32,000 nt of DNA from an archaeon GW2011_AR10 (GTDB lineage: Archaea > Iainarchaeota > Iainarchaeia > Iainarchaeales > GW2011-AR10): NCBI GenBank assembly GCA_000830275.1, contig CP010424.1, positions 360,001 through 392,000 of the forward strand, in the 5' to 3' direction. Of the stretch, positions 1,027-26,375 are shown piece by piece. Every line of letters starts with the position of its first letter. Position 1 is the first letter of the stretch. The notes under the pieces are model-generated. The model was not told where the DNA came from, did no database searches, and saw nothing but the letters and a program-made list of their open reading frames with translations. The position numbers and the translations under genes are program-made.

Positions 1027-1027
1027 A

Positions 1028-2538: not shown

Positions 2539-2539
2539 C

Positions 2540-3613
2540 TTGACTGGGAACTGCTTTGGAAATTTGTTTAAAATAACCACTTTTGGTGAAAGCCATGGAA
2601 GGGCAATTGGCGTTGTAATTGACGGCTGTCCAGCTGGCCTGGAATTGAGCGAAAAAGACATCCAGAAAGAACTTGACCGAAGGAGACCAGGGCAAAACAG
2701 AATTGTATCTCCAAGGAAAGAGGAAGACAAAGCAGAGGTTCTCTCCGGCGTTTTCAAGGGAAAAACAACTGGCACTCCAATTGCCTTGCTTGTGTTCAAT
2801 AGGGATGCTGACTCAAGCAAATATGAAAAAATAAAAAATGTTTTCAGGCCAGGCCACGCAGATTTTACTTATTTTCAGAAATATGGCTTTAGAGACTATC
2901 GGGGCGGCGGCCGGAGTTCCGCAAGAGAAACCGTTGCAAGAGTTGCCGCAGGTGCGGTCGCAAAAAAATTATTGAAAAAGTTTGGCATTGAAGTTCTGGC
3001 TTATACGGTTGAAATTGCCGGGGTTAAATCTAAATCTTTTAATAGAAAAGTGATTGAAAAAAATTTGGTCAGGGCAGCTGATTTGAAAGCAGCAAAGGAA
3101 ATGGAGGAAGCAATTTTTAGTGCGCGTGAGCAAAACGATTCTGTTGGGGGCATAATTGAAGTGAAAGCAACTGGTGTTCCTGCAGGGTTAGGGGAGCCTG
3201 TTTTTGACAGGCTTGATGCAGTAATTTCTTACGCATTGATGAGCCTGCCGGCAGTGAAGGGTGTGGAGATAGGTGCTGGTTTTGAGGCGGCGAGAATGAC
3301 TGGAAGCCAAGACAACGACTTAATGCTTTACAGCAAAAAATCAAAAAAGTTTGAGTTCAAGTCAAACAATGCAGGGGGCATTCTTGGGGGAATTTCAAGC
3401 GGCGGAGAAATTGTAGCCAGAATTGCAATCAAGCCGCCTTCCTCAATTAAAAGAGAGCAAAAGGCATTAACTGTTGAAGGAAAAGAGGTAAAACTTAAGG
3501 TTGAGGGAAGGCATGATCCCTGTGTTGTTCCCCGCGCAGTTCCGATTGTTGAAGCAATGGTGGCCTTGGTTTTGGCTGACTTCTTTCTAATACAAAAAAC
3601 AAGAAAACTCTGA
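2540..3613 (+). CDS. aroC: chorismate synthase
   Basis: [27 protein letters not shown] and [13 protein letters not shown] are present. There is no in-frame ATG before the conserved N-terminus, so the start is probably the TTG at 2540, 1 nt after the aroE stop. Confidence 0.9.
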
Positions 3614-7700: not shown

Positions 7701-7962
7701 GAATTATGCCATCGGGTTTCTCTCTCTCAATCACTTTTTCAACAAAAAAAGGCGTAACAGGAAGAAAGTAAATCCTGTCAGCAAAACCTTTGGAGGTTTG
7801 CACTGTAGCAATATTTGGGTTGATTACAACCACTTCAATCCCCTCTTCTTTGAGAGCCTTGATTGCCTGGCTTCCAGAGTAGTCGAATTCTCCGGCCTGG
7901 CCTATTTGAAGCGCGCCGGAACCAAGCAATAAAACCTTTTTTGGTTTTTTTAGAGATTTCAC
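4765..7962 (-). CDS. carB: carbamoyl-phosphate synthase large subunit
   Basis: 1065 aa with a duplicated ATP-grasp architecture (GSGALQIGQAGEFDYSGSQ and GSGAYRIGSSVEFDWCSV). It has a GTG start with a GGAGG element 7 nt upstream (7970-7974) and a GTGA overlap with the carA stop. Confidence 0.95.
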   Translation of the reverse strand: MKSLKKPKKVLLLGSGALQIGQAGEFDYSGSQAIKALKEEGIEVVVINPNIATVQTSKGFADRIYFLPVTPFFVEKVIEREKPDGIILSFGGQTALNAGLELEKNGVLKKHNVAVLGTQVDAIEKTEDRALFNKELTSIGLKVPKSIPCISQREALKAARKIGFPLIVRAGFSLGGAGSGVVKNIEELKALTGRVFSLSPQILVEEYLEGWKEIEYEVVRDGFDNCITVCNMENFDPMGIHTGESIVVAPSQTLSNREYHKLREISIKVIRHLRIVGECNIQFALNPASEDYRIIEVNARLSRSSALASKATGYPLAFVAAKLGLGYSLLDLENSITKVTKSCFEPALDYIVVKIPRWDLKKFRNVSKKIGSEMKSVGEVMAIGRCFEEAMQKAVRMLQIGMYGLVGNKIYFQKLSQELKYPTDERVFAVMNSLIRGDSVEKIHGLTHIDKWFLFKLQNVVRTSNELKGKKLDRITKEQLLNAKKLGFSDKQIAMLVGEKSELTVREYRKGFGIRPFVKQIDTLAAEYPAKTNYLYLTYDGLNDDAEFTGVKQVMVLGSGAYRIGSSVEFDWCSVSCVKQLKRLGYSTIMVNYNPETVSTDYDICDKLYFDELSLETVLDIYEKENPVGVILSTGGQIPNNLAIKLSEQKVKILGTSAKSIDSAEDRHKFSRLCDELGIDQPEWKELTSSSEALKFAKKAGFPVLVRPSYVLSGQAMNVAFTAEQLKNYLSEATLLSKDYPVVISKFILNARETEIDAVADNGKLLCWAMTEHIENAGVHSGDATMVLPPQRTYLETMRQMKQIAEKIAVALSIRGPFNIQFIAKDNNVRVIECNLRASRSFPFVSKVIGTDFIEIATNAIMGEKTSAVNSSSLELDRVGVKAPQFSFTRLRGADPISGVEMASTGEVACIGRDLEDAFLKALLSTGFKLPEKNILISLSGDENRYKVLEEVKGLFKAGYKLYGTEHTALFYQSNGIKVELVHKMHENKKPNVSDLLGQKKLDLVISVPNPLKQIDLDKNYDLRRLAVDHSVPLITNLQLAKLFIESILKRNLSELEIEPWEHYV

Positions 7963-9041
7963 TTCAATTCCTCCAAGAATTCGTCAAACAAAAAACCGCA
8001 ATCTGTTGGGCCTGGGGTTGCTTCAGGATGGAACTGAACTGACATGAACGGCTTGCGCTTATGGCGAATTCCCTCATTGCTCCCGTCATTTGCATTCCTG
8101 AACCATTCCATCCAGCCGGCTGGCAGGCTTTTTGCATCAACCGCATAACCATGGTTTTGGCTTGTGATAAAGCACTGCTTTGTTCCAACAAGCTCTGCCG
8201 GCTGGTTTTGGCTTCGATGACCATATTTCAGCTTATAAGTGTTGGCGCCTGCAGCCAATGCAAGAACCTGGTTTCCAAGGCAGATTCCAAAGGTTGGAAT
8301 TTCTTGCTCCAATGCTTTGGCAGCATTCCTGATTGTTGCCTGCACTGTTTTTGGGTCGCCGGGACCGTTGCTGATCAATAAACCGTCAAAGTCAAATTCT
8401 CCGTCGAATGGATTAAAATCCCAAGGCACCCTGATTACCTGAACCTTTCTTTCAAGCAGGCACCTTACAATGTTGCCTTTTGCCCCGCAGTCAACAAGCA
8501 TTACTTTTTTCCCTTTCTCGCCATAGACAACAGGCGAAGAAACGCTTACCTCCTGCACCAAATTCCTTTTGTTTGGGTCAACAATAGCTAAGTCTTGGCC
8601 ACTGAAGACGATTTTTCCAAGCATTACGCCTTTTTCCCTCAGCTTCTGGGTTAATGCCCTCGTATCAATTCCAGTTAATGCAGGAATGCTTTCAGATTTA
8701 AGCCATTCAGCTAGCGAGGAAACAGAATTCCAATGATTGTGCTGAAAAGAGTAATTGCTTACAATCAGCCCGGAAACCTGGATTTTGTCTGACTCGAAGA
8801 ACTCAAGCAGCTGATTGGTTTTATTTTTTGGAGGAACCCCATAGTTTCCAATTAATGGATAGGAGAGGACCAAAATTTGGCCCCTGTAGCTTGGGTCACT
8901 AAGGCTTTCAGGGTAACCAACCATTCCAGTATTGAAAACCACTTCACCGCTAATGCTTTTCTCAGCACCAAAAGACAAACCTTCAAAAACAGAGCCGTCC
9001 TCAAGAATTAGTTCAGCTTTTTTAGGCAAAAATTTGGGCAT
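7959..9041 (-). CDS. carA: carbamoyl-phosphate synthase small (glutaminase) subunit
   Basis: GVPPKN..., the class I GATase motif FGICLGNQVLALA (catalytic Cys), GHRSQNQP and SVQFHPEA. It lies immediately upstream of carB and is translationally coupled to it. Confidence 0.93.
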   Translation of the reverse strand: MPKFLPKKAELILEDGSVFEGLSFGAEKSISGEVVFNTGMVGYPESLSDPSYRGQILVLSYPLIGNYGVPPKNKTNQLLEFFESDKIQVSGLIVSNYSFQHNHWNSVSSLAEWLKSESIPALTGIDTRALTQKLREKGVMLGKIVFSGQDLAIVDPNKRNLVQEVSVSSPVVYGEKGKKVMLVDCGAKGNIVRCLLERKVQVIRVPWDFNPFDGEFDFDGLLISNGPGDPKTVQATIRNAAKALEQEIPTFGICLGNQVLALAAGANTYKLKYGHRSQNQPAELVGTKQCFITSQNHGYAVDAKSLPAGWMEWFRNANDGSNEGIRHKRKPFMSVQFHPEATPGPTDCGFLFDEFLEELK

Positions 9042-9114
9042 TCTAAAAAAAAATTTATGGAAGGGACAGCTTTTAAAGTTATTCCCGCAGGATAAAAACC
9101 ACGCACAGTATTGT

Positions 9115-10899
9115 TCAGATATTAAAGTGTTGTTTTTCCTCGCTAACTTTTTCCTTCAAGTATTTTTTGTACTCTTCGGTTAAGTTGTTGATGTCAATAG
9201 TGTTCCCTGACTGAAGGTAGTAAGCGATATTTTTCAGGAAAACATTGCTGCCAATGACGTGGTACATAATAACATAGTCAACTCCTGCATTGTAAAGCTC
9301 GGATGCCTCATGAAAGTAATGTGCGGACCCAAAAACCACTATGCCGGGGTTAACGCTTTTAGCGTACTTCACAACTGAAACAGCTGCTTTTGTGTCAGGC
9401 ATTGAAATAATCAAAAGCTTTGCCTGCTGCAGATTTGCCTTGCGCAAAATTTCCCTGTTGTCGGCAGAACCATAAATTGAGTTAATGCCATTCTTGATTG
9501 AGTTGAGTATTACATCATAGTTGTGGTCAATCACAACCAAAGGATACTCGCGGAAAAGCGCCTTCGCAATGTTGAACCCTACAACCCCTGCACCAACAAT
9601 AACAACATGTTCTTTCATGTTCTTTGGAACATTCTCAAGCTGGTTTACTTTTTGGTAGAACCTCCTGTTTTCCTTTAAGTTTTTGGTAAAGCGCGCAGAA
9701 GACCTATTCAGCCTCTCATAAATTGGCTCGCTGTGGTGCATAAGGTAAGGAGTAAGGGCCATTGAAAGCGCAATAACAATTATGACAAGCGAGTGCAAGC
9801 CAGGAGTCCTGTTGAGTATGTCCCTCCCCAAGTCAGCAATTATGAAGGAGAACTCTGAAACCTGCGCCAAAGCAAGGGCGACAAAGACGCTGATTCTCCC
9901 TCCGTAGCCGGAAAAAAGAGTGATTAAATAGAACAGAACCGGTTTGAACACGAACACCACAAACAGCACAAACAGCAGAAGCGTTAATGGGAAATAGGCA
10001 AAGCCCAGGTTTATCTGCATTCCGAGGGTCACAAAAAAGATTGTTGCAAAGAAATCCCGCAGTGCCTTGATCCTGTGGAAGACCTCAAGGTTGTAGGGAA
10101 GGTTTGAAAGCGCCAAGCCGGCAATGAACGCGGCAAGCGGGATTGAAAAATTCAGGGCAAACGCAATAAGAATGAAAACAAAGAGGCTTGTCACGGAAGC
10201 CAAGAACAGCAGCTCGTCTGAACGCACAGAATAACTGAACACTGCAGGGTAGACGTGCCTGTTCAAGAGGTATGCGAACACCAACAGAAAAGCGCCTACT
10301 GCCAGCACTGGCGCAAATACATTGAAGGAAAAAAGCTGCTCCAAGTTAGCGAGAAATGGCAGGGCAATAATCACAAACGCGTCTTGGACAAGAAGAAACC
10401 CTACCAGCAGCCGGCCGTGAAGGGTTGTTATCTGGTGCGAGTCGGAAAGAATTTTCACAACAACCAGTGTGCTGCTGAATGCAAGTATTAGGCCAAGATA
10501 AATTGACTGGGTGAAATCAAACAGGTTGAACATGAATGTTCCAACAAAAACAACAAGAATTGTCAGCAGCACTTGAAGCGTTCCACCAACCACTACAACT
10601 TTGCCCAAATCAGCAAGCTTGGAGAAATCTGATTCAACTCCAACCCCAAAAAGCAGGAAAGCCACTCCAAGCGTTGAAAGAATCAATGCATCTTCTAGGT
10701 CAGTGATGCCCAACGGAATGCCTGCAAATTCCAAGCCCATAGAGCCAAGCCCTATCGGGCCAATTATTATGCCAGCAAGAATGTAGGCTATTAGCGCCGG
10801 CTGCTTTAAGTGCTTTGCCAGAAAGCTCAGCAGAGTTGCGCTTACCACAATCAAGCCAATTTCAAAGAGCAGCGAAAATTCAATCAAGGGCGCAGCCAT
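9115..10899 (-). CDS. CPA2-family monovalent cation:proton antiporter with a C-terminal TrkA-N/RCK domain (Kef-like)
   Basis: The first ~390 aa form about 12 hydrophobic helices typical of Na+/H+-exchanger-family proteins. A Rossmann motif (VVIVGAGVVGFNIAKAL) follows. Confidence 0.8.
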   Translation of the reverse strand: MAAPLIEFSLLFEIGLIVVSATLLSFLAKHLKQPALIAYILAGIIIGPIGLGSMGLEFAGIPLGITDLEDALILSTLGVAFLLFGVGVESDFSKLADLGKVVVVGGTLQVLLTILVVFVGTFMFNLFDFTQSIYLGLILAFSSTLVVVKILSDSHQITTLHGRLLVGFLLVQDAFVIIALPFLANLEQLFSFNVFAPVLAVGAFLLVFAYLLNRHVYPAVFSYSVRSDELLFLASVTSLFVFILIAFALNFSIPLAAFIAGLALSNLPYNLEVFHRIKALRDFFATIFFVTLGMQINLGFAYFPLTLLLFVLFVVFVFKPVLFYLITLFSGYGGRISVFVALALAQVSEFSFIIADLGRDILNRTPGLHSLVIIVIALSMALTPYLMHHSEPIYERLNRSSARFTKNLKENRRFYQKVNQLENVPKNMKEHVVIVGAGVVGFNIAKALFREYPLVVIDHNYDVILNSIKNGINSIYGSADNREILRKANLQQAKLLIISMPDTKAAVSVVKYAKSVNPGIVVFGSAHYFHEASELYNAGVDYVIMYHVIGSNVFLKNIAYYLQSGNTIDINNLTEEYKKYLKEKVSEEKQHFNI

Positions 10900-10920
10900 T
10901 CTAAAAAGAATGGTTTAAGT

Positions 10921-10930
10921 GGTATAAAAT
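10921..10930 (-). promoter_or_regulatory. TATA-like box (attttatacc on the minus strand) for the antiporter gene
   Basis: It is centred about 27 nt upstream of the ATG at 10899, which fits a leaderless transcript. Confidence 0.4.
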
Positions 10931-10956
10931 ACCCACGCCTTTAGGCGTGGGTTTTT
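10931..10956 (-). terminator. GC-rich hairpin (acccacgcc/ggcgtgggt) flanked by T tracts on both strands
   Basis: A perfect 9-10 bp stem sits at 10931-10940 and 10943-10952. On the minus strand it is followed by auuuuau, and on the plus strand by tttt. Confidence 0.5.
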
Positions 10957-10971
10957 CCTCTCCGTCAACGT

Positions 10972-11012
10972 AAAAAATCCGCTAACCGCCGTATAAAGAC
11001 AGCGGATTTTTT
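10972..11012 (-). terminator. hairpin with A6/T6 arms (aaaaaatccgct...agcggatttttt), a bidirectional terminator-like structure
   Basis: 12-nt perfectly complementary arms are separated by 17 nt. The structure lies 28 nt downstream of the stop of the 105-aa gene that ends the cysS transcription unit. Confidence 0.55.
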
Positions 11013-11039
11013 GGGTTGTTAAAATGCTTACTGTAACAC

Positions 11040-11357
11040 TTAAGCCCCGTAAGCAAAAAATAAAACCAGAAAAACAACCATTAGGACAAAAACCATGAGG
11101 GCAATGAAGTAAAGCAGCGTTGAGAACGCTGGAAAAGAAATATCGGCAGGCCCCTTGTCAGGCGTGGTTATCAGCTGCTTTAATATCATTTCAGAGCCAG
11201 CTTTGCCGCTCCGATAATCAAACTGCTTTCTAATCTCTTCAAGCTCTTTTTCACTGCAGGTTCCCTTCAACTCATTAAGGCATTGCTTGAGCGATTTGCC
11301 CTTGTCCAGCTCTGACTTAATGAACTTAATGCCTGCCTCGACTTTTTCCTGCTCCAC
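11040..11357 (-). CDS. hypothetical tail-anchored membrane protein
   Basis: 105 aa, with a charged helical N-terminal part and a single C-terminal hydrophobic helix (LLYFIALMVFVLMVVFLVLFFA). It lies 16 nt downstream of cysS on the same strand. Confidence 0.55.
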   Translation of the reverse strand: MEQEKVEAGIKFIKSELDKGKSLKQCLNELKGTCSEKELEEIRKQFDYRSGKAGSEMILKQLITTPDKGPADISFPAFSTLLYFIALMVFVLMVVFLVLFFAYGA

Positions 11358-12921: not shown

Positions 12922-13128
12922 TTAGTCTTCTTCCACGAAAAACTGGTTTAGGTCTTCGTCAAAGTACTTTTCCTTGTCTGTTGCAAGCTTAAATTTTCCG
13001 CCTTTCACCTTGACTATTAGGTCAGCAGAGCACTCAGGGCACTCAACACGATCGTGCTCATCATACTCGTTGTTGTCAAGCTCGAATTCCTCATGGCACT
13101 CAGGGCACTTAACCTTCATTAAAGCCAT
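12922..13128 (-). CDS. small four-Cys zinc-ribbon protein with an acidic C-terminus (LysW-like architecture)
   Basis: 68 aa with two CPEC knuckles 18 residues apart (KCPECHEEFELD...VECPECSADLIV) and a tail ending in DEDLNQFFVEED. A GAGGAG element lies upstream of the ATG. Confidence 0.6.
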   Translation of the reverse strand: MALMKVKCPECHEEFELDNNEYDEHDRVECPECSADLIVKVKGGKFKLATDKEKYFDEDLNQFFVEED

Positions 13129-14753: not shown

Positions 14754-15950
14754 ATGCAATGGTTTCGTGGAAGGAAAACCAAGCGCCACACAACAGCTAG
14801 GAGAACAATTCCTTTACTGGGAGCTTTCCAGAGAAGGGAGAAGCTCGAAAGGAAGAGGGTTTTAGAGGCTTTCTCTGCATACAAAGTGGCACACCCGTCA
14901 ACAAGAATAAAACTGCCGGTTTTCGCTAGAGTTTACAAATTACTGAAAAACAGCAAGCAAGGCGTGACAGCCATAAAAAGACAAAGTAATGTTGCAGGAC
15001 ATACAGTTTACAGAATTGACAAAGTGTCCGGATTAAGGACAAAAGAGCAATGGGAAGAAATCAAGGCACTGGAAAAGGGTAAGGGCCGGAGAATCGAGGA
15101 TTTGTTTGATGGAGCAATTTTCGAGGAGATTAAAAACCTTCTCAAGAATACCAGGCTAAGTTATTCAGAAATAGCCGACAAGGCCGGAACCCACAGGCCC
15201 GTTGTTGCAAAAGTGGCAAACAGATACAATCTTAGGAGTGAAAAGGAAAGAAAAAAAATACAGTATGAGTCAACTGCAAAAAAATTGAGAAATGCCCCTC
15301 AAGAGAAAATAGAGGAGCTACTTTTGAAAAAAGAACGATTTAACGGTAGAACTGACTTTTCTCATTCTCTAAGTGATGTTGCACGGATGCTTGGGTTTAG
15401 CAAGTCCTCAGTGTCAAATGTAGTTTCCAGGTTGCAAGACAAGCGAACTGAAGCTGACAATTACAGGGTTGGAAATCGGAACAAGGCAGCAAGAATATCA
15501 GAAGCAAAATCAAGCCCTACACAAAAAAAAGCAAGGGAACTAATGTCAACAACTCTCATGGGTTCAAATGAAATAGTTACGCAGCTAAGGGAATTTGACT
15601 TGAAAACAATCGGCAGAGTAAAGGGAAACGATATATACGCAAAGTACATTTACGGTGCTAGGCACAGTCTTGGCCTCAGCAGGTTGGCAAGAACCACTAC
15701 AAGAAGGGAAGTTGCCGCCAGAGGTGAGTTTAATTCCATTATTTCAAAGCTGACTGATGAAATGAGGCCAGTGAATCTGCAAAATATTCTTGAAAATAGG
15801 AACGGGCAGCTCACCCCACAAATTGCCAAAGATTTTTTTGTAGAATTCCTATTGAGGAAAAGAAATCTTGACCCATTCCAGATTTCCGCTCAAATAGGCC
15901 TAGAGCAAGATTACATAATTGGAATAAAAAGAAAATTAGCAAAAAAATAG
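14754..15950 (+). CDS. hypothetical protein built from several helix-turn-helix-like repeats, with a basic N-terminus
   Basis: Segments such as LSYSEIADKAGTHRPVVAKVANRYNL, SLSDVARMLGFSKSSVSNVVSRLQ, GVTAIKRQSNVAGHTVYRIDKVSGL and FQISAQIGLEQDYIIGIKRKL recur and look like HTH units. I see no catalytic motif. Confidence 0.5.
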   Translation: MQWFRGRKTKRHTTARRTIPLLGAFQRREKLERKRVLEAFSAYKVAHPSTRIKLPVFARVYKLLKNSKQGVTAIKRQSNVAGHTVYRIDKVSGLRTKEQWEEIKALEKGKGRRIEDLFDGAIFEEIKNLLKNTRLSYSEIADKAGTHRPVVAKVANRYNLRSEKERKKIQYESTAKKLRNAPQEKIEELLLKKERFNGRTDFSHSLSDVARMLGFSKSSVSNVVSRLQDKRTEADNYRVGNRNKAARISEAKSSPTQKKARELMSTTLMGSNEIVTQLREFDLKTIGRVKGNDIYAKYIYGARHSLGLSRLARTTTRREVAARGEFNSIISKLTDEMRPVNLQNILENRNGQLTPQIAKDFFVEFLLRKRNLDPFQISAQIGLEQDYIIGIKRKLAKK

Positions 15951-17633: not shown

Positions 17634-18512
17634 TTAAGGCAAAAGCTTGATTTCTTTTGTGCGATTGAAAATGTGCTTCATTATGATTTCTGCAAATTTT
17701 TTGCCGAAAAACTTTGGCATGAGACCGGGAGAAAAGTTTATTTCAAGTATCAGCCACCCTTTACTTGATTTGATGAAGTCAACCGAGCTTATGTCCATTC
17801 CCATAATCTTTGCCGCTTTAAGCGCGATTTCCTTTATTTCATCCGGAATCCTGATTAGAATTGCCCTTGCCCCCCTTGAAACGTTTGCACGCCACTCGCC
17901 TTTTTTGGCAATCCTCTTCACAGGGTAAACGTTGTCGCCAATTACATAGCATCGAATGTCATCGCCTTTGTCAATGAATTCCTGCGTTGCAACAAACTCT
18001 TTGAAAACCTGCATTGTGTCAAGCAAAGGCACTAAATCTTGTTCTTCTTGCACAAGCATCACTCCCCTGCCGCCGAAACCTGAAAGAAGCTTTACAACAA
18101 GCGGGTAACCGACTGTTCTAGAAATTTTTGTTGTAGGCTGCGGTGAAACGCTGAGAGAAGTGGTTGGAACAGGCAGCTTTGACTTGCACAGCGTCTGCAC
18201 AGTGTAATACTTGTGGTTAACTATCTGGAATGCTTCGCTGCTTGTAGGCAAGTAAACCCCTGAGCTCTCCAAAATGTCGAGCACGCATTCGCCGAAAAGA
18301 AAGTCTTCGCTGAAGAGCCTTGCATAGCAGGCATCAAATTTTGTGAGGTCAGTGTTCTTGAAGAACAACTTGTTTTCCCCGCCAACGCACTCAACCCTTA
18401 TGCCATCCAATGGAATGGATAATACAGTTGAAAAGTATTTTTTTGCCTCAGAGATAAGGTGCTTGCTTACTTCTTTTCTGGCCTTGCTGCCTGAAATCAG
18501 CAGGAACTTCAC
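17634..18512 (-). CDS. RimK/LysX-family ATP-grasp ligase (catalytic motifs intact)
   Basis: GYPLVVKLLSGFGGRGVMLV (Lys plus Gly-rich loop), QEFI..DIRCYV, EWRANVSRGA, and SSVDF...LILEINFSPG (Mg-binding D/E/N). There is a 4-nt overlap with the upstream paralogue. Confidence 0.8.
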   Translation of the reverse strand: MKFLLISGSKARKEVSKHLISEAKKYFSTVLSIPLDGIRVECVGGENKLFFKNTDLTKFDACYARLFSEDFLFGECVLDILESSGVYLPTSSEAFQIVNHKYYTVQTLCKSKLPVPTTSLSVSPQPTTKISRTVGYPLVVKLLSGFGGRGVMLVQEEQDLVPLLDTMQVFKEFVATQEFIDKGDDIRCYVIGDNVYPVKRIAKKGEWRANVSRGARAILIRIPDEIKEIALKAAKIMGMDISSVDFIKSSKGWLILEINFSPGLMPKFFGKKFAEIIMKHIFNRTKEIKLLP

Positions 18513-19357
18513 TTGAGCACCTCAAAGTAATGCTCTGCAACGCTGTCATTGAGGTCTTTTCCCATAGCAGTCCCGAACCTGTCAAAGTTTACCTCAGGTG
18601 AAACGCTTAAAACCGTGTCCCCGATTAATTTGACTGTTGCAATGTCAGCCCCAACTGTTTTAGCTGCCTTAATCGCAGTCTCAGTGCTTTTGCTGCTTAA
18701 GCTCACAGGCGTTAGCTTTGAGTGGTGCTCTGCCTTTTCGCGGTCCCACTTCCTTCTAACGCCAAAAACGTTTTTCCCTATGACAACACAGTAGTCTAAA
18801 TCACCTTGAAGGTATTCCTGAACCATAATGGCATCAACTTTTGAGCGGAAGCTCTTGGCAAAAGACTCAAAGCTCCGCTGGTCTTCAATTACTATGCTCT
18901 GCGCTTTTGCTGCCCCAACAAAAGTCTTGAACATAACCGGAAAATTAAAAGACTTAACAGCCTGCTCTAAAAGATTCGCGTTAGCAACAATAAATGTTTT
19001 CTGTGTCTTGATGTTTCTGGAATTAAGGACAACGTTCATGAACGGCTTGTTTGAGGTAACATAATAGGATTCCGGCTTGAGCTGGCAGTAAATGCCCTTA
19101 TTGCTTAACTCGGTTAGAAATGGCTCCACAAACTGCGTGAACTGCTGCCCGACATTCAAAAACACTCCATTGTACTTGGAGAAGTTTATTGTTCCAACCA
19201 AAATTTTTGTCTGGTTCCCTTTGGTGAGAAGACTGACTCTGCCCACATAAATGAACCCAACGTGCTCAAAGCCCCTCTTTTCAAAGGACTTCTTGAGTTC
19301 AGGCAATGCTGCTCCCTTCTTATCCGAAATTATCACTACATCCACGGCAGCCACCAA
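18509..19357 (-). CDS. divergent ATP-grasp-like paralogue with eroded catalytic motifs
   Basis: It is the same length and collinear with its neighbours (FPVMFK, VQEYL, PEVNFD). It lacks the Gly-rich loop (TFVGAAKAQS), the DxR Arg (LDYCVV), the N..GG motif, and the first Mg-binding Asp (ATVKLIG). It starts at TTG or GTG, 5 nt after the upstream stop. Confidence 0.6.
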   Translation of the reverse strand: MVAAVDVVIISDKKGAALPELKKSFEKRGFEHVGFIYVGRVSLLTKGNQTKILVGTINFSKYNGVFLNVGQQFTQFVEPFLTELSNKGIYCQLKPESYYVTSNKPFMNVVLNSRNIKTQKTFIVANANLLEQAVKSFNFPVMFKTFVGAAKAQSIVIEDQRSFESFAKSFRSKVDAIMVQEYLQGDLDYCVVIGKNVFGVRRKWDREKAEHHSKLTPVSLSSKSTETAIKAAKTVGADIATVKLIGDTVLSVSPEVNFDRFGTAMGKDLNDSVAEHYFEVLK

Positions 19358-19362
19358 AAAAG

Positions 19363-20889
19363 CTAATTTTTATTTTCAGTTTCCTTTTGCTCTGGCTTCC
19401 ACACCCTTACAGGCCTATTGGATTTGCCTAAAGCCTTGAATACGTGTTCTGAGAGAAGCTGGTTAATTGCTTCGTTCTGTCTAAGAATCTTTTTAAGGTA
19501 TCTTTCAAAAGACTTGCTGAGCTCCCTGTAAAGAGACACATCAGCGTAAACAAGCCCCTCGCTTATTCGCCAGTAAGCAGATGTTCCTTGCTTGGCGAAC
19601 ACAATATAGCCGCGCTTTTTGTCGATTTCACTCATTGCCTCTTCAAGAAGGTTATAATCAATAAGGTAAACTCCGGCCGTTGACTTGCTTGGGTCCATTA
19701 TTATGAGCTCGCTCCCTTCAACTCCAACGCACAAAACATAATGGCCTTTTGACTTTGAATGCCGGAAGAGCGCAGGCTTATGGAACCATAATAGCACAAG
19801 GGCACCTTCACTGAGCCAGCTCTTCATTTCCTCCTTGAGGTCAGATATTTCATCATATTTTACCAGCACGCCCTTCACATTAGAGTTTGTGACATTCTTT
19901 ACTGCCTCGATTAGTTTCCTTGGCCCTGTTCCTCCAGGGGTTTTTGTTTTTGCAAGCTCGCCGATTTTTTCCTGCGACACGTCGTACTCGAAGAAAGAAA
20001 GCATCATTGCAGCGGAAGCCGGCCCGCAATGCGCTGGAATCTGCGCAACAAAATTGGAGCGCAGCGCTTCAAGCCTTGTTATGTCCTGTTTTGTCCTCTT
20101 AATATAAATTTTTTGTTTTACGAGTTTTGCGTGAGGGTAAAGCAGGTTATAGCCGTTAGGCAGCCTAATGAGAACCCCCTGCGGGGTAAACCCAATAACT
20201 TCCCCGGCTTCATCCCCCAGCATTATGTGCTGCCCGGGCTTAAGAAGGTTTTTCTCAACGTAGGCGCCCATGAAGAAATTTGAGAGCGGGTCCTTGAAAA
20301 TATTGTAAATGAGTGCAACGCTTAAAAGGACGAAACCATAAATTACCGCAACAAGCAGGTTATCAATGAAGGGAACAGTTAAGCCTACAAAGCTGAAGGA
20401 AACACTGAACAATACAAGGAAAAGAAAAATTTTTACAATCGTGAAAGTGTTGTTAATGAATTCAACGGAAATTCCAACTTCATACAGGTACTCTGACAGG
20501 CCAATCCTTAAGAGCGCGCGCTTCAAGATGTCCACAATAAGGTTGATTAAAATGAAGCCCAAAAACAGGAGCAGGAGAATTATTATGATTGCAGGGATCG
20601 AGTTGAGAAGGCTCTGGATTATTATTTTGGCAGAGTTTACTTCAAGGAAATTCAAAGCAATAATAATTGAGAGCACGATTATGAAGAGCTCAAAGAGCCT
20701 GCTGATTGATTTGATTACGCGGTTTGGCTCAATGTTAAAGCGGTTGTTTAAGGCTTCTATTATTGTTGCAGCAAGCTTTGCTATTATGACTCCTGCAATG
20801 AGTGTTGCTGCTGCCAGCACTACCTGTTCAAAAGCAGGGCTTCCAACCGATATAGTGTAATCGTTCAGGTTAATTAGGCCTTCAAACAT
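19363..20889 (-). CDS. fusion of an MscS-like membrane/beta-domain with a papain-like (C39-type) Cys-His domain
   Basis: aa 1-200 contain about 5 TM helices. aa 200-262, LSNFFMG...KPGQHIMLGDEAGEVIGFTPQGVLIRLPNGYNLLYPHAKL, resemble the MscS TM3 and beta-domain. aa 283-400 carry Q283, C288 in QIPAHCGPASAAMML (codon 20026-20028), H383 in KGHYVLCVGV, and D399 in IIMDP, which is the order of a C39-like catalytic set. Confidence 0.65.
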   Translation of the reverse strand: MFEGLINLNDYTISVGSPAFEQVVLAAATLIAGVIIAKLAATIIEALNNRFNIEPNRVIKSISRLFELFIIVLSIIIALNFLEVNSAKIIIQSLLNSIPAIIIILLLLFLGFILINLIVDILKRALLRIGLSEYLYEVGISVEFINNTFTIVKIFLFLVLFSVSFSFVGLTVPFIDNLLVAVIYGFVLLSVALIYNIFKDPLSNFFMGAYVEKNLLKPGQHIMLGDEAGEVIGFTPQGVLIRLPNGYNLLYPHAKLVKQKIYIKRTKQDITRLEALRSNFVAQIPAHCGPASAAMMLSFFEYDVSQEKIGELAKTKTPGGTGPRKLIEAVKNVTNSNVKGVLVKYDEISDLKEEMKSWLSEGALVLLWFHKPALFRHSKSKGHYVLCVGVEGSELIIMDPSKSTAGVYLIDYNLLEEAMSEIDKKRGYIVFAKQGTSAYWRISEGLVYADVSLYRELSKSFERYLKKILRQNEAINQLLSEHVFKALGKSNRPVRVWKPEQKETENKN

Positions 20890-20976
20890 CTTACCTATCT
20901 AAGAAAACACATTTAACCTTTTTATACGTTACTTTATTCAATAAAGTTTCAATAAAAGGCTTCTTGGCGAGGAAAA

Positions 20977-21780
20977 ATGAAACTCCTGATTTTAAGCGTT
21001 GAAGAGCAGCCTGAAATTGAGAGGCTGAAAGAGGAAGCAAAAAAATCAGGGCATGGCGTAGAAGTTAAGAGCCCGGAAAAATCCACTGAAAGGGTTCTGC
21101 CATCGTTCACTCACGTGTTGGTTAGGGCAGTTAAAGGAGCCGGGGAAGCAGCAAAAGAAATTGCAATGAAAGCCCGTTCCCTTGGCTTAAGGGTAGTGGA
21201 TGAAAGGCTGGCAACAGGCAAGGGCTTCAACAAGGCAGCAATATACTCTATTCTCAAAAAAAATGGGTTCAGCGTACCGGAAACCATTGCGTTTGAGGAA
21301 AAAAACTTTCCAGCCATCAGAAAATTCCAGGGAAAAGAAGTGATAATAAAGGACGTTAAGGGAAAAAGAGGGCAGGACGTCTTCAAGGTGAATAAAACCG
21401 AACTAGAAGTATTTTACCAGCGGTTAGACAAATCAAAGAAGTATTTGGCGCAAGAATTTTTAAGAATAGACAAAGAACTCCGCGTGCTGGTTGTGGGCAC
21501 AAAAGTTGTCGGCGGTTTCTCTAAGCAGTCAAGCAACTGGAAAAAAAACATTGCTGCCGGAGCAACCCCGGTTAAAGAGCAACTAAGCGTTGAAATAAAA
21601 AATGCTTCAGTTAAAGCTGCTTCCATAACCAAAACAGAAATAGCCGGAATTGACCTCGCGTTGGTTGGCGGAAAAATTTTTGTGCTGGAAGTGAACAGGG
21701 CACCGGGCTTCATCGGGTTTGAGAAAGCAACAGGAAAAAACGCTGCAAAAGAAATAATACAATATGTTGCGTCAAAATAG
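20977..21780 (+). CDS. RimK-family ATP-grasp ligase (catalytic motifs intact)
   Basis: GKEVIIKDVKGKRGQDVF, AQEFL..ELRVLVVG, NWKKNIAAGA, and GIDLAL...FVLEVNRAPGFIGFEKATGKNAAKEII, a RimK-like C-terminal block. Confidence 0.78.
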   Translation: MKLLILSVEEQPEIERLKEEAKKSGHGVEVKSPEKSTERVLPSFTHVLVRAVKGAGEAAKEIAMKARSLGLRVVDERLATGKGFNKAAIYSILKKNGFSVPETIAFEEKNFPAIRKFQGKEVIIKDVKGKRGQDVFKVNKTELEVFYQRLDKSKKYLAQEFLRIDKELRVLVVGTKVVGGFSKQSSNWKKNIAAGATPVKEQLSVEIKNASVKAASITKTEIAGIDLALVGGKIFVLEVNRAPGFIGFEKATGKNAAKEIIQYVASK

Positions 21781-21791
21781 CATTACAGTGT

Positions 21792-22970
21792 TTACCCGCG
21801 AATAAGCTTCATCAGCACGCGCTTGCTCAGCCTGATTTCCTTTAAGGTTATTGATTCCTGCGCGGAATGGGGGTTGCTTCCTCCAGGCCCAAAGCCAACC
21901 GTTGGAATGCCAAGCCTTGCAATGAACCTTCCGTCAGTGGCACCTAGCTCTCCCGCAAGCTCTGCTTTCCTCCCTATAATGCTCTTAACGCATTCAGCTA
22001 TCTCTTTCACAAACCCATTGTTTTTTGGAACAAAGTAACCATTGCTTCCAGTCATTGAAATAATGCCTTTCAACCCGTGCTTTTTCAAAAGCCTTATTGC
22101 AAAACTTTTGAACCCGCTCATAACGGCCTTGATGTTTTCTTCCGGCAATGCCCGGATGTCAAAACCAATTTCAGCACTGCCAGGAATGGCATTCGTTTTA
22201 TGGCCAACCTTCAAAATAGTGATGTTGAACCTTCCCCAAATTTTCTTCTTAGGCGCAAAACTTGGAGCAGCAACAACTGAAGCTGCTTTCTCTCGCTCTT
22301 TCTCGTATTCCTTCAAGTCGTTTAGGAACGGAACCAATTTATGCACAATATTTGGGTTTCTGAAAGCATACGCTGCATGCCCTGCTGTGCCCTTGAACTC
22401 AATGAAGCCCATTACTATTCCGCTGCAGCCAATGCCAATGTGGCTTAGCTTTGAATCCATTACAAGGCAGCCATGCGCACCAAGTTTTTTTGGATGCCTT
22501 TCTGAAAGAAACTTTATCCCGTACTCAGAGCCAACCTCTTCATCGCATCCTACTACAATTTTAACGTTTTTGCCGCACTCCTTGCCGCGGAGGTCACGCA
22601 ATGCACCCAAACAGACAGCAATAGCTGCCTTGTCATCTGCTGCCCCAAGACCAGACAGTTTTGTTCCTTTCCTTAGAAGTTCGTTTGGTTTCCTTGTCCA
22701 GTCACTGCCTGCAGAAACAACATCAAAGTGAGTTACAACAAGCAAATCCTTTTTCCGCTTGTTGTCAAAGTAAATTAGCACGTTCGGCCTCTGCTTTTTG
22801 TCCTGAGCCTTGGCCGACACGATTTCAGTGCGGAACCCAAGAGCGCGGGCCTCTTTTGCGATGAAGTCGGCGCACGCAGCATAGTTGGCTTTTGTTTCAG
22901 AATCCGTGTTGAACGCAACAAGCTTCCTTAACAGGTTAACCTCATACTCCAAGCTGTCCTTTGGCGGCAT
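21792..22970 (-). CDS. M20-family metallohydrolase (ArgE/DapE/LysK/carboxypeptidase-type deacylase)
   Basis: The M20 metal-ligand motifs occur in the usual order: VVTHFDVV, GLGAADDKAAIA and GCDEEVGSEYG. It converges on the ATP-grasp gene with an 11-nt gap. Confidence 0.8.
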   Translation of the reverse strand: MPPKDSLEYEVNLLRKLVAFNTDSETKANYAACADFIAKEARALGFRTEIVSAKAQDKKQRPNVLIYFDNKRKKDLLVVTHFDVVSAGSDWTRKPNELLRKGTKLSGLGAADDKAAIAVCLGALRDLRGKECGKNVKIVVGCDEEVGSEYGIKFLSERHPKKLGAHGCLVMDSKLSHIGIGCSGIVMGFIEFKGTAGHAAYAFRNPNIVHKLVPFLNDLKEYEKEREKAASVVAAPSFAPKKKIWGRFNITILKVGHKTNAIPGSAEIGFDIRALPEENIKAVMSGFKSFAIRLLKKHGLKGIISMTGSNGYFVPKNNGFVKEIAECVKSIIGRKAELAGELGATDGRFIARLGIPTVGFGPGGSNPHSAQESITLKEIRLSKRVLMKLIRG

Positions 22971-24694: not shown

Positions 24695-24752
24695 ATTGCT
24701 GCAAGGCAATCAAATTTTAAAGAATGGCTTTCTATTTATTAGTGGGGGTTTC

Positions 24753-26375
24753 ATGGAGCAGTTTTCAAAGGAAGAGCAGGAAATTTTAAGGCCGTTTTTT
24801 ACGAACCTTGATAAGCCGGTTTTTGTGCTCAAAAACCTTCCAGAGGTTGTGAAAGGCGCCTTGTTTTCTCGCTACAGCCGCTCGGACAAAAGCCTCAGGA
24901 GAGTGCTCTTGGAAGAGTTCATTAAAGACGAAAAAATGGGCTTCAAGGAAATTGTTGGGCACCAGGCTGAAAGCGGCGTAAGCCAAGTTGTGGCAATCCG
25001 AAAAGCAGAGGAATTCTATGACAGGGTTTTGGTTGGGTTTGGAGATGACTCGGTTGCAGAGCTTGGAGGAGCGCACGTTGCAGTTGAAGATGTTAGCAAC
25101 ATTACAAGCGTTATTCTTGAGGATTCTCGCATTGGGTTAAGCCCGCTGGAAAAAAGCACGCGCTACGTGTGGTATGACAAGAAGGTTAATGGAAAATACG
25201 CTTACTATTCCGATGAAAAAATAATGCAGTCAAGGCACGCCGATTTGTTCACTGAAACATGCGACATGCTGTTTGATTCCTATGCTGAACTGGTGGAACC
25301 AACCAAAAAGTACTTGAATGAACAGTTCCCGCAGGAAGAAAATGTGAGTGACAGGGCATACAATTCAACAATCAAGGCAAAAACCTGTGATGTTCTCAGG
25401 GTTTTTTTGCCGGCAGCAACAACCACAAACTTAGGCTTGTTCGGCAACGGCAGGAGCTTTGAATACCTTCTCACAAAAATGTATTCAAATGAATTAACTG
25501 AACCGCAGAATGTTGCTGCTTCAATGCATGCAGAGCTGCAAAAAGTAATTCCCTCTTTTGTGAAAAGGGCAAGGGATCAATTTGGAATGCCGACAATTGA
25601 ATTCATGCACGAAACAAGGAAAGGCATGAGGCAATTGGCGGGAAAAATTTTTGAAGGAACAAAACCACAAAAAGAAAAAGAAGTTACTTTGGTGAGCTTT
25701 GATTCAAAAGCTGAGGAAAAAGTCGTTGCAGCTGCACTTTACCCTTTCACTGACCTTTCTCACAAGCAGGTGCAGGAAAAAGTGCGGAAAATGAATGCTA
25801 CTGAAAGAAAGCAGGTGCTGAAAGAATACCAGTTCAGGCGCCAGAACAGAAGGCATAAGCCTTACCGCGGCTTTGAGCATGCTTACTACGAGTTTGATTT
25901 GCTTGGAAACTATGGCATTTATCGTGACTTGCACAGGCACAGAATGCTTACACAGCAAAGGCAACCACTAACAGTAAAGCACGGGTTTAATATTCCAACA
26001 GAATTCAAGGCACTGGGCGTTGAAGAAAAATACGTTGACGCAATGAAGGAAGTTGCTTCCGCGTTTAACGCAATTGCAAAGGATTTGCCGAAAGAAGCGC
26101 AGTACGTTGTTCCGTTTGGTTACCGCATCAGGTGGAATGTTTGCCTGAATCTTCGCGAATTATACCATTTGGTTGAACTGCGCTCAACAATTCAAGGGCA
26201 TCCGGATTACAGGAGAATTGCCTTCAAAATGTTTGATGAAGTGAGAAAAGTGCAGCCTGCACTTGTTGAGTGGATGAAATTTGTTGTAACAAAGGATATT
26301 GGCTTGGAGCGACTTGAAGCGGAAAAAGAGTACGATAAAAGAATTGAGGAAGTAAAGAAAAAGTATGGCGGCTAA
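24753..26375 (+). CDS. thyX: flavin-dependent thymidylate synthase, double-length (two ThyX-like domains in one chain)
   Basis: The C-terminal half has FEHAYYEFDL...YRDLHRHRMLT (RHR signature) and LNLRELYHLVELRS. The N-terminal half is collinear with ThyX (ALFSRYSRS..., HVAVEDVSN..., SPLEKSTRY, LRVFLPAATTTN). The ATG at 24753 is preceded by GGGGG, and the listed TTG at 24696 is unlikely. Confidence 0.8.
   Translation: MEQFSKEEQEILRPFFTNLDKPVFVLKNLPEVVKGALFSRYSRSDKSLRRVLLEEFIKDEKMGFKEIVGHQAESGVSQVVAIRKAEEFYDRVLVGFGDDSVAELGGAHVAVEDVSNITSVILEDSRIGLSPLEKSTRYVWYDKKVNGKYAYYSDEKIMQSRHADLFTETCDMLFDSYAELVEPTKKYLNEQFPQEENVSDRAYNSTIKAKTCDVLRVFLPAATTTNLGLFGNGRSFEYLLTKMYSNELTEPQNVAASMHAELQKVIPSFVKRARDQFGMPTIEFMHETRKGMRQLAGKIFEGTKPQKEKEVTLVSFDSKAEEKVVAAALYPFTDLSHKQVQEKVRKMNATERKQVLKEYQFRRQNRRHKPYRGFEHAYYEFDLLGNYGIYRDLHRHRMLTQQRQPLTVKHGFNIPTEFKALGVEEKYVDAMKEVASAFNAIAKDLPKEAQYVVPFGYRIRWNVCLNLRELYHLVELRSTIQGHPDYRRIAFKMFDEVRKVQPALVEWMKFVVTKDIGLERLEAEKEYDKRIEEVKKKYGG

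Follow-up and report, generated by a model that had tools for sequence, protein, structure and literature searches.

Gene content of the locus

We analysed a 32,000-nucleotide stretch of the genome of the archaeon GW2011_AR10 (contig CP010424.1, positions 360,001 to 392,000 of the forward strand), which is referred to below as the window and whose coordinates are counted from its first letter. The genes of interest lie between positions 17634 and 22970. Three of them, which encode a predicted mechanosensitive channel fused to a papain-fold domain, a degenerate paralogue of RimK and an intact RimK-family ligase, form an operon that recurs across DPANN archaea and that we tentatively relate to the RimK/RimB-type modules that add and trim glutamates. 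Two accessory genes, for a second RimK-family ligase and an M20 metallohydrolase, adjoin this core. The features are as follows (aa, amino acids):

19363-20889, minus strand: fusion of a predicted MscS-type channel with a papain-fold domain, 508 aa, ATG start
18509-19357, minus strand: RimK paralogue without catalytic residues (pseudo-ligase), 282 aa, TTG start
17634-18512, minus strand: intact ATP-grasp protein of the RimK-family alpha-L-glutamate ligase type, 292 aa, GTG start
20890-20976: AT-rich divergent spacer, 87 bp, the presumed site of the promoters for the core operon and the 267-aa ligase gene
20977-21780, plus strand: accessory RimK-family ligase, 267 aa, ATG start
21792-22970, minus strand: accessory M20 metallohydrolase (DapE/ArgE/CPG2-like), 392 aa, ATG start

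The coordinates give a 5-nt gap between the first two genes of the operon, a 4-nt overlap between the second and the third, the 87-bp spacer between the divergent genes and an 11-nt gap between the convergent ligase and hydrolase genes. A preliminary description of this DNA had listed five open reading frames (ORFs) with these coordinates, gaps, start codons and domains; all of them were found again in the sequence, and Pfam and NCBIfam profile searches on the five proteins agree with its domain calls. The NCBI labels on these genes are just 'C39 family peptidase' and 'RimK family alpha-L-glutamate ligase', and the best database matches carry the labels Candidatus Diapherotrites or Iainarchaeum (DPANN lineage). 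No component gave a meaningful match to the known anti-phage defence models of PADLOC.

A predicted MscS-type channel carrying a papain-fold domain

The 508-aa protein can be divided into three parts:

20095-20889, minus strand, aa 1-265: membrane part with five long helices and an MscS beta-domain (AlphaFold2 model, Foldseek)
19555-20094, minus strand, about aa 266-445: papain-fold catalytic domain (AlphaFold2 domain model, Foldseek, phmmer)
19366-19554, minus strand, aa 446-508: conserved C-terminal helical extension (invariant columns in two alignments; low-confidence model helices)

In the AlphaFold2 model of the full-length protein (predicted local distance difference test, pLDDT, 80.9; predicted template-modelling score, pTM, 0.43), helices span residues 18-51, 56-81, 85-128, 142-167 and 173-215 and are followed by strands at 221-263. 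Foldseek aligned this model with structures of MscS, YnaI, MSL1 and MscK at E values of 3e-6 to 1e-4, the structures matched by the membrane part being MscS 6vyk, YnaI 9h95, MSL1 6vxm, MSL10 and MscK, each with a probability of 1.0. Among the profiles, the window protein itself reaches just PF05552 (MscS TM-helix, 23.4 bits), and many homologues have PF00924. Its beta-domain contains the signature typical of MscS, KPGQHIMLGDEAGEVIGF...LIRLPNGYNLLYPH, and from about aa 266 the papain domain stands in the place of the MscS alpha-beta vestibule domain (PF21082). The structure matches to the MscS family, the beta-domain signature and the PF00924 domains of the homologues together point to an MscS-type channel in which the vestibule has been replaced by a cysteine-peptidase domain and a helical tail; the fusion of an MscS-like membrane domain to a C39/papain-like domain, as first proposed from the letters, thus holds in profiles, in the AlphaFold2 and Foldseek analysis and in the homologues. 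Lysine and arginine residues are concentrated in the loops 46-61 and 122-145, and because these are alternate loops (positive-inside rule) and MscS canonically has its N-terminus out and its C-terminus in, the papain domain is predicted to be cytoplasmic. At locus L003 (handles beginning with L denote individual loci that we compared), a stand-alone paralogue of the MscS part, of about 292 aa and lacking the papain domain, is encoded at 7351-8241 (minus strand) between the genes for TrkH and S6e, 2.6 kb upstream of the fusion gene.

The papain-like assignment holds in both profile and structure comparisons. Pfam detects Peptidase_C39_2 (PF13529) at aa 284-400 (E 1.2e-11, 45.8 bits, threshold 24) and PF03412 with 31.5 bits (threshold 22). 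The residues Q283, C288, H383 and D399 are invariant in an alignment of 43 homologues, and the Q/C/H/D set is retained in 46 of the 47 genomic copies. The channel-papain family comprises 47 clusters, from DPANN only. A phmmer search of 1.84 billion representative proteins returned 88 relatives of the papain domain in all, 57 of them at E<=1e-10; about 45 of these 57 are proteins of ~440-545 aa whose C-terminal half contains the domain, and ~12 are shorter and fragment-like, so the domain is found mostly in this fusion. The columns W440/R441, Y454, E462, R470 and W497, listed as invariant, mark the C-terminal extension, which might, speculatively, be a docking site.

The AlphaFold2 model of the domain (aa 262-508; pLDDT 84.5, pTM 0.82) has as its best Foldseek match Alr0975, the primitive phytochelatin synthase of Nostoc, in its gamma-glutamyl-cysteine acyl-enzyme form (2bu3, E 2.6e-7), with ~19% identity over about 180-190 aligned columns. 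It also matches the ComA peptidase domain (3k8u, target-normalised TM, or template-modelling, score 0.81), 6mpz and PCAT1; all four fall between E 3e-7 and 1e-4 with a probability of 1.0, and CdiA papain toxins and a pseudomurein endoisopeptidase come after them in the list. Alr0975 works via a gamma-glutamyl-cysteinyl acyl-enzyme, so that the papain domain could conceivably be a transferase as well as a hydrolase, but Alr0975 has no membrane fusion, and the Pfam Phytochelatin profile gives the window protein only 15.5 bits against a cutoff of 24.9. PCAT and ComA exporters are likewise membrane transport proteins with a cytoplasmic C39 papain fold and the same Q/C/H/D set; here, in contrast, an MscS-type moiety takes the place of the ABC exporter, the domain is larger and stands at the C-terminus, with a conserved extra tail, and a leader-peptide gene is absent. 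The analogy to the butirosin enzymes BtrH and BtrJ that the preliminary description had drawn found no specific support: BtrH is not among the 50 Foldseek matches listed, and phytochelatin-synthase-like and ComA/PCAT C39 folds are nearer. The condensation-type papain folds CcbD and AziU2-U3, which we take to be related to BtrH, match the domain at E about 3e-3 at best.

MscS channels with extra C-terminal modules include the cyclic-nucleotide-gated bCNG and the Corynebacterium glutamate exporter MscCG. Like the window protein, these have an MscS core with an added domain at the cytoplasmic end, and MscCG ties the family to glutamate efflux. We know of no described MscS member with an enzyme in the alpha-beta vestibule position or with a genetic tie to peptide ligases.

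An intact ligase, a catalytically dead paralogue and an accessory ligase

The three ATP-grasp proteins were scored against curated models, with cutoffs of 143.4 bits for TIGR00768 (rimK_fam), 331 for NF007764 (S6-RimK), 275.6 for TIGR02144 (LysX), 350 for MptN and 300 for CofF, and their motifs were analysed in alignments of 43 sequences of the 292-aa type, 39 of the 282-aa type and 13 of the 267-aa type to E. coli RimK. The 292-aa protein matches Pfam RimK (E 4e-34) and scores 165.4 bits with TIGR00768, above the cutoff, as do its orthologues and variants (144-186 bits). Its best PDB matches are RimK structures (7qyr, 3.8e-36; 5zct, 3.6e-35), with ArgX at 3e-19. Throughout the 43 sequences the ATP-binding Lys, the QE hinge, the DIR Arg, the R-x-N..GG loop, the Mg-binding Asp and the E-x-N motif are all conserved, in agreement with the earlier impression of an intact enzyme, and we classify the protein, by its motifs, as a RimK-family ligase with an intact catalytic set.

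The 282-aa protein matches RimK weakly (E 2.9e-11) and remains below the rimK_fam cutoff with 53.4 bits. The eroded catalytic residues that had been noticed in it prove to be a family-wide loss: in the 39 sequences the DIR Arg, the R-x-N..GG loop and E-x-N are lost, and Lys stands in place of the Mg-binding Asp. To judge from this pattern, the protein is an ancient RimK paralogue that is catalytically dead. The 267-aa protein (RimK E 6e-23; rimK_fam 128.2 bits, below the cutoff) had also been called intact, which stands for the residues that bind ATP and Mg but not for the substrate loop: the 13 sequences retain K, QEF, R, N, D and E-x-N and have an altered substrate loop. By sequence, it is an orphan RimK-family branch limited to Iainarchaeia.

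The more specific models place none of the three. With S6-RimK the 292-aa protein scores 135 bits and its variants 110-150; with LysX the 292-aa, 267-aa and 282-aa proteins score 126.8, 90.6 and 33 bits, respectively, the ligases and their variants together ranging from 91 to 144; and with MptN/CofF the 292-aa protein reaches 124/66 bits and the 267-aa protein 103/65 bits. A neighbour-joining tree (200 bootstraps; RimK, ArgX and LysX references taken from PDB alignments) recovered the 267-aa type as a clade in 181/200 replicates, the 282-aa type in 148/200 and the LysX/ArgX references in 146/200. Neither the 267-aa nor the 292-aa clade grouped with LysX/ArgX in any replicate (0/200), and no ligase of the window, the 267-aa clade included, grouped with a CofF-labelled protein (0/200). 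The ligases thus lie outside the LysX/ArgX, CofF and MptN families, into which they might have fallen according to the preliminary description. The tree separates the groups but not the deep branches, and we therefore claim neither a descent of the dead paralogue from the live one nor a sister relationship of the two to bacterial RimK.

These results bear on a reading in which the ligases glutamylate a cofactor tail as CofF or MptN do, with hydrolases acting in salvage and the link to the channel incidental. The secondary matches to both models, and one distant relative of the 267-aa ligase that was labelled CofF by JGI, would fit this reading. We nevertheless regard it as highly improbable, since the scores are far under the two cutoffs, the labelled protein is separate from the 267-aa clade in every replicate, the linkage of channel and ligase genes in 42/42 informative loci (see below) is not incidental, and the window holds no F420 or methanopterin biosynthesis genes.

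Conservation of a three-gene core across DPANN archaea

To describe the genomic setting, one genome per species was scanned, which yielded 45 loci with a channel-papain gene from Iainarchaeia/Diapherotrites, Micrarchaeota, Aenigmatarchaeota, Nanohaloarchaea (including a complete Nanosalina genome) and Woesearchaeota. Their arrangements are as follows:

38 loci: channel, pseudo-ligase and ligase genes on one strand, mostly overlapping
3 loci: lone RimK ligase gene, no pseudo-ligase
1 locus (L046): same ligase pair, inverted
3 loci: cut by contig ends, uninformative

The order channel, pseudo-ligase, ligase is thus kept in 38/45 loci, in Iainarchaeia, Micrarchaeota, Aenigmatarchaeota and Nanohaloarchaea. 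In every one of the 42 informative loci the channel gene has a RimK-family ligase gene at most about 1.5 kb away, down to 33-37% protein identity, and this linkage indicates clustering beyond chance. The conserved unit is the three-gene core of channel-papain protein, pseudo-ligase and ligase, which is passed on as a set throughout DPANN. Of the five-gene cluster that had originally been singled out, this core is co-localised in related genomes, but the 267-aa ligase and the M20 hydrolase are lineage-specific accessories confined to Iainarchaeia.

Several loci depart from this pattern or show recurrent neighbours. At L046 (= L002) the ligase pair lies on the strand opposite the channel gene (8353-11214, minus strand); after it come an ORF of 119 aa and an Asp/Glu racemase gene, which hints at possible D-amino acids in some lineages. 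At L007 (12376-13257) the active ligase gene is broken into two ORFs, and the pseudo-ligase is truncated to 141 aa at L008 (7109-7534); these broken genes are either assembly errors or signs of module decay in those metagenome-assembled genomes. A P-loop protein of ~344 aa recurs in 15 loci (e.g. L028-L030, L032-L035, L037-L039), where it is convergent on the core in Aenigmatarchaeota and Nanohaloarchaea; it has no significant Pfam match (MobB, 20.8 bits, is sub-threshold) and no PDB sequence match. Its gene forms an operon at L029 (11827-13820, minus strand) with a third ATP-grasp gene, YheCD/ATPgrasp_ST-like and encoding 324 aa; the remaining Aenigmatarchaeota loci have an unannotated gap of equal size at this point, and at L003 it follows an AstE/AspA-family gene. 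Genes for TrkAH and Kef-like K+ transporters are also recurrent near the core.

Association with RimB-like peptidases

The preliminary description had concluded that the gene set maps onto no described pathway. By analogy, however, it maps onto RimK and the peptidase RimB, as a RimB-family (PF05618) retropepsin gene stands beside the same ligases in five variant loci (L041, L043, L047, L050 and L052). In the Woesearchaeota loci L041 and L043 and the Micrarchaeota locus L047, which have no pseudo-ligase, the RimB-like gene is next to the RimK gene and both are beside the channel-papain gene. L050 and L052 carry a pseudo-ligase, a distant 292-type ligase and the RimB-like gene, with no channel-papain gene within 6 kb. 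The first of these shares the TyrRS / RibL / IMPDH neighbourhood of the window, and in the second the RimB-like gene is followed by those for the pseudo-ligase and the ligase, and a canonical MscS gene lies 2.6 kb away. At L051 the channel-papain protein is without the Gln, Cys and His residues, and a homologue of the MATCAP-like carboxypeptidases that act on acidic tails is encoded adjacent to it. No RimB-like gene was found in the window or in type-A loci.

Across these arrangements RimK is the constant element, paired with two of three partners: the channel-papain protein, the pseudo-ligase and the RimB-like protein. The constancy of the ligase among its partners, RimB-like ones included, anchors the DPANN module in RimK-type chemistry. 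We also considered RimB-like proteins and the MscS-C39 fusion as mutually exclusive, equivalent partners of the ligase, a scheme that is weakened by the three loci having both.

RimB is the established bacterial partner of RimK; it trims poly-glutamate tails and stimulates the synthesis of free poly-alpha-glutamate, and this synthesis alters cellular osmolality (PMC11957791). The DPANN module shares with the RimK-RimB(-RimA) system of Pseudomonas and with E. coli RimK (PMC11957791, PMC7343187) a RimK-family ligase that is genetically coupled to a dedicated peptidase, and its active ligase is nearest to solved RimK structures. The differences are that the peptidase of its main form is a papain fold on an MscS channel, whereas that of Pseudomonas is a soluble retropepsin, that a dead RimK paralogue is present, and that the hosts are archaea without bacterial S6, in which the ligase misses the S6-RimK cutoff.

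Accessory ligase and interchangeable hydrolases

Of the 24 Iainarchaeia-type loci, 13 have a 267-type ligase gene adjoining the core, where it either lies upstream in divergent orientation, the arrangement of the window, or extends the operon. An M20 gene adjoins the core in 6/24, in three arrangements, and the two occur together in five loci plus the window. The M20 protein has both M20 domains, as expected for the M20 hydrolase it had been taken for (Peptidase_M20 and M20_dimer, 80.2 and 56.7 bits), with the H-x-D, D, E-E and H metal motifs visible; TIGR01910 (ArgE/DapE deacylases) scores 191.5 bits against a cutoff of 217.6, and PDB matches of about equal strength are to DapE (1e-16), ArgE (1e-13) and carboxypeptidase G2 (8e-13).

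Within about 5 kb of the core, 15 of the 24 Iainarchaeia-type loci encode an M20, an M29 or a formylglutamate amidohydrolase protein. The slot is filled by M20, by an M29 aminopeptidase, by a formylglutamate-amidohydrolase-family protein (directly after the ligase), by an AstE/AspA-family protein (L003) or by a MATCAP-family metallopeptidase (L051). Variable order, persistent linkage and swaps among non-homologous hydrolases support a cycle that builds and trims, and the build-and-trim logic that was first suggested for the window alone fits these recurrent, interchangeable neighbours.

Two other families recur here. A zinc-ribbon protein of 82-89 aa (CPSC...CINC, basic tail) is encoded directly after the operon-appended 267-type ligase at L013 (14085-14333, plus strand; = L001, 14130-14378) and also at L016, L017, L020 and L024; at L001 its start codon overlaps the stop codon of the ligase gene. 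The second is a GCS2-like (carboxylate-amine ligase) protein of about 441-442 aa, a weak match at 22 bits and with no PDB sequence match. Its gene lies near the core in six Iainarchaeia-type loci (e.g. L007, 6592-7920) and directly after the ligase gene in the Nanohaloarchaeal loci L031 (about 8567 onward; phmmer) and L036 (BLAST clustering only), eight loci in total.

A gamma-glutamyl thiol-peptide cycle, resembling that of glutathione or phytochelatin, would account for part of these data: the GCS2-like protein and the ATP-grasps would build the peptide, the papain domain would remodel or degrade it at the membrane, and an M20 dipeptidase would complete the process. The acyl-enzyme structures of Alr0975 with glutathione as top Foldseek matches, the weak Pfam Phytochelatin matches (window protein; P0014, P0016), the GCS2-like genes in eight loci, the secondary GSH-S_ATP matches of the ligases and the nearby Kef-type transporters are in keeping with such a cycle. 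Yet the ligase scores 165 bits as RimK and 41 as glutathione synthase (GshB cutoff 272), most loci lack the GCS2-like gene, the RimB-like partners indicate alpha-poly-glutamate chemistry, and the C39 domains of ComA and PCAT match the papain domain about as well as Alr0975. On balance, we find this cycle quite unlikely.

Candidate acceptors and the LysW-type carrier pathway

An additional reading frame in the window had been overlooked in the preliminary description:

12922-13128, minus strand: LysW-like zinc-ribbon protein, 68 aa, two CPEC motifs, tail ...FFVEED; candidate acceptor only

It scores 27.3 bits with Pfam Zn_ribbon_LysW (gathering threshold 27) and 24.9 with TIGR01206 (53.2), and it is below the cutoff of NF041070. 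Its best Pfam and TIGRFAM matches are to LysW, as is its best single-stretch PDB match (5k2m_E, E 0.0027). The gene lies between those for CysRS, the cysteinyl-tRNA synthetase, and a membrane protein, 4.5 kb from the core. Orthologues with acidic tails, such as ...DESDYE and ...DTDDDE, occur 5.8-9.2 kb from the core in L006, L007, L012, L021 and L027 only (Iainarchaeia); housekeeping genes separate the LysW-like gene from the core, and the loci of Aenigmatarchaeota, Nanohaloarchaea and Woesearchaeota lack it.

With RimK-family ligases, an M20 deacylase and an acidic-tailed, LysW-like ribbon within one 10-kb region, the window resembles the LysW/LysX/ArgX/LysK pathway, in which case one or more of the ligases would load the C-terminus of the LysW-like protein as LysX/ArgX do and the M20 enzyme would release the product as LysK does. 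The pairing of the 267-aa ligase with M20 in five loci plus the window adds to this resemblance. However, no kinase, reductase or aminotransferase of the LysZ, LysY or LysJ type was found in the annotated window, as had been stated at the outset, and none was noticed among the recurrent families of the 45 loci or in the annotated loci L001-L003 and L050-L052; the ligases are outside the LysX/ArgX clade and far below the LysX cutoff; the carrier-like gene is unlinked to the core; and most loci have the core without M20. We judge a LysW-type pathway unlikely as an account of the module, and treat the LysW-like ORF as a candidate acceptor and a lead mainly for the sub-module of 267-aa ligase and M20 hydrolase.

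Outside Iainarchaeia, neither a conserved small ORF or precursor nor an acidic-tailed zinc ribbon recurs near the core. Genes for S6e, which ends in ...EELLEEE, and eIF2-gamma precede the core on the same strand in nine Nanohaloarchaeal loci. The tails of Nanohaloarchaeal S6e and of Rpb7 (...EEEEE) were considered as acceptors and set aside as non-specific, because the whole proteome of these halophiles is acidic; the S6e linkage is no more than a lead.

The same survey weighs on the idea that the module matures and exports a graspetide, another peptide that is made on the ribosome and modified after translation, or a surface polymer, with the ATP-grasps modifying a precursor and the C39 domain removing its leader. 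C39 domains on PCAT/ComA exporters classically process double-glycine leaders and are strong fold matches of the papain domain. Pairs of ATP-grasp ligases are also found in microviridin-type clusters; context for such clusters is given in PMC8939145. Nevertheless, no lineage has a conserved small ORF or precursor beside the core, one of the two ATP-grasps is dead, the score with the graspetide maturase model TIGR04187 is 34 bits (cutoff 350), the membrane part is MscS-type and not an ABC exporter, and the genomes are reduced ones in which housekeeping genes surround the module, so that we hold this idea to be very unlikely.

Other features of the window

The remainder of the window consists of archaeal housekeeping genes: four shikimate-pathway enzymes, CarAB, a Kef-like antiporter, CysRS, TyrRS (tyrosyl-tRNA synthetase), a RibL-like cytidylyltransferase, IMPDH (IMP dehydrogenase) and ThyX. 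No tRNA or Rfam features were found in it. The genes for DHQ (dehydroquinate) synthase, DHQ dehydratase, shikimate dehydrogenase and chorismate synthase, together with CarAB, occupy 100-3613 (plus strand) and 4765-9041 (minus strand), a biosynthetic capacity above the DPANN norm. The ThyX-type thymidylate synthase at 24696-26375 (plus strand) is unusually long (559 aa) and contains two Thy1 stretches, which suggests a tandem or extended ThyX. A basic protein of 398 aa, encoded at 14754-15950 (plus strand), shows weak helix-turn-helix matches and a weak likeness to the N-terminal part of IS630 transposase.

Proposed role of the module

We tentatively propose, with a little less than even confidence, that the core is a DPANN-specific, membrane-anchored variant of the RimK/RimB-type module that adds and trims glutamates. 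In this proposal the 292-aa ligase would use ATP to make alpha-linked glutamyl chains, either as free oligo- or poly-glutamate or as a tail on a protein or carrier, and the dead 282-aa paralogue might hold, scaffold or regulate it. The papain domains on the cytoplasmic face of a presumably heptameric channel would cleave the chains or transfer them via an acyl-enzyme, and accessory exopeptidases or deacylases, such as the M20 protein in the window, would finish the breakdown. The 267-aa ligase may add a second ligation step in Iainarchaeia. Compared with RimK and a dedicated peptidase, the unusual features are the enzyme-bearing, predicted mechanosensitive channel and the pseudo-ligase.

Several observations weigh against this proposal. 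That the ligated amino acid is glutamate is an assumption based on family membership alone, and no equivalog cutoff is reached. The channel function and the heptamer are predictions only, and the pTM of the full-length model is just 0.43. The best structural neighbour of the modelled papain domain handles gamma-glutamyl-cysteine and not alpha-poly-glutamate, and the presence of both the MscS-C39 and the RimB-like proteins at three loci argues that the papain domain is no simple replacement of RimB. The Trk/Kef neighbourhood is weak evidence because DPANN genomes are small and syntenic. The build-and-trim module has candidate substrates only; to our knowledge, bacterial S6 is the sole proven protein target of RimK, and it is lacking in archaea.

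A parallel by parts is the rlo operon of Pseudomonas aeruginosa, which encodes a RimK-like ATP-grasp (RloC, 24% identical to RimK), a papain-fold protein with seven transmembrane helices (7-TM) and a peptidase that cleaves poly-glutamate, and which is needed for hypo-osmotic tolerance (PMC11957051). Both RloABC (PMC11957051 / PMC12239564) and the DPANN module combine a RimK-like ATP-grasp, a polytopic membrane protein with a papain (transglutaminase-like) fold and a peptidase that is known (rlo) or proposed (DPANN) to cleave poly-glutamate, and the hypo-osmotic phenotype of the former fits the MscS-type partner found here. In contrast to the MscS-like protein described here, whose papain domain is intact and predicted to be cytoplasmic, RloB is 7-TM with an inactive transglutaminase domain that faces the periplasm; moreover, RloA is secreted and the rlo operon has no pseudo-ligase. 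The likeness is one of parts, and homology is claimed for the shared RimK-family ATP-grasp alone.

Glutamate is a major anionic osmolyte and the counter-ion of K+. With a peptidase mounted on a tension-gated channel, the turnover of a glutamyl pool may, speculatively, be coupled to membrane tension or osmotic state, in which case the module could serve as an osmotic buffer or a release valve. Circumstantial support for this comes from the rlo phenotype, from the effect of poly-glutamate synthesis on cellular osmolality (PMC11957791) and from the K+ transporter genes near the core. A more specific version, which we consider doubtful but worth stating, is that seven papain sites ringing the mouth of a heptameric channel form, with the RimK pair, an enzymatic osmolyte buffer: ATP-driven polymerisation of glutamate would withdraw osmotically active solute, and tension-controlled cleavage at the channel mouth would regenerate, and perhaps release, glutamate. 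If this were true, the protein would be a mechanosensitive channel and an enzyme in one, the first of its kind, and the module would reveal the first physiological role of RimK-type poly-alpha-glutamate synthesis in archaea.

The full-text literature that we searched yielded no account of the module, nor of an MscS-peptidase fusion, although an earlier in-silico mention may exist. RimK-family ligases are widespread, and since their role beyond bacterial S6 is an open question, the module offers a concrete, conserved and testable context for it. Its protein set is fixed at three, with defined accessory hydrolases in addition; the ligase, the dead paralogue and the isolated papain domain should express readily, and the full-length channel is a protein with five transmembrane helices. 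An MscS channel with a cysteine peptidase in the vestibule position suggests a direct coupling of tension to peptide turnover. The module is among the few multi-gene units common to distant and very reduced DPANN archaea, from groundwater Iainarchaeia to hypersaline Nanohaloarchaea, and this sharing across reduced genomes suggests that it is likely to be important to their physiology.

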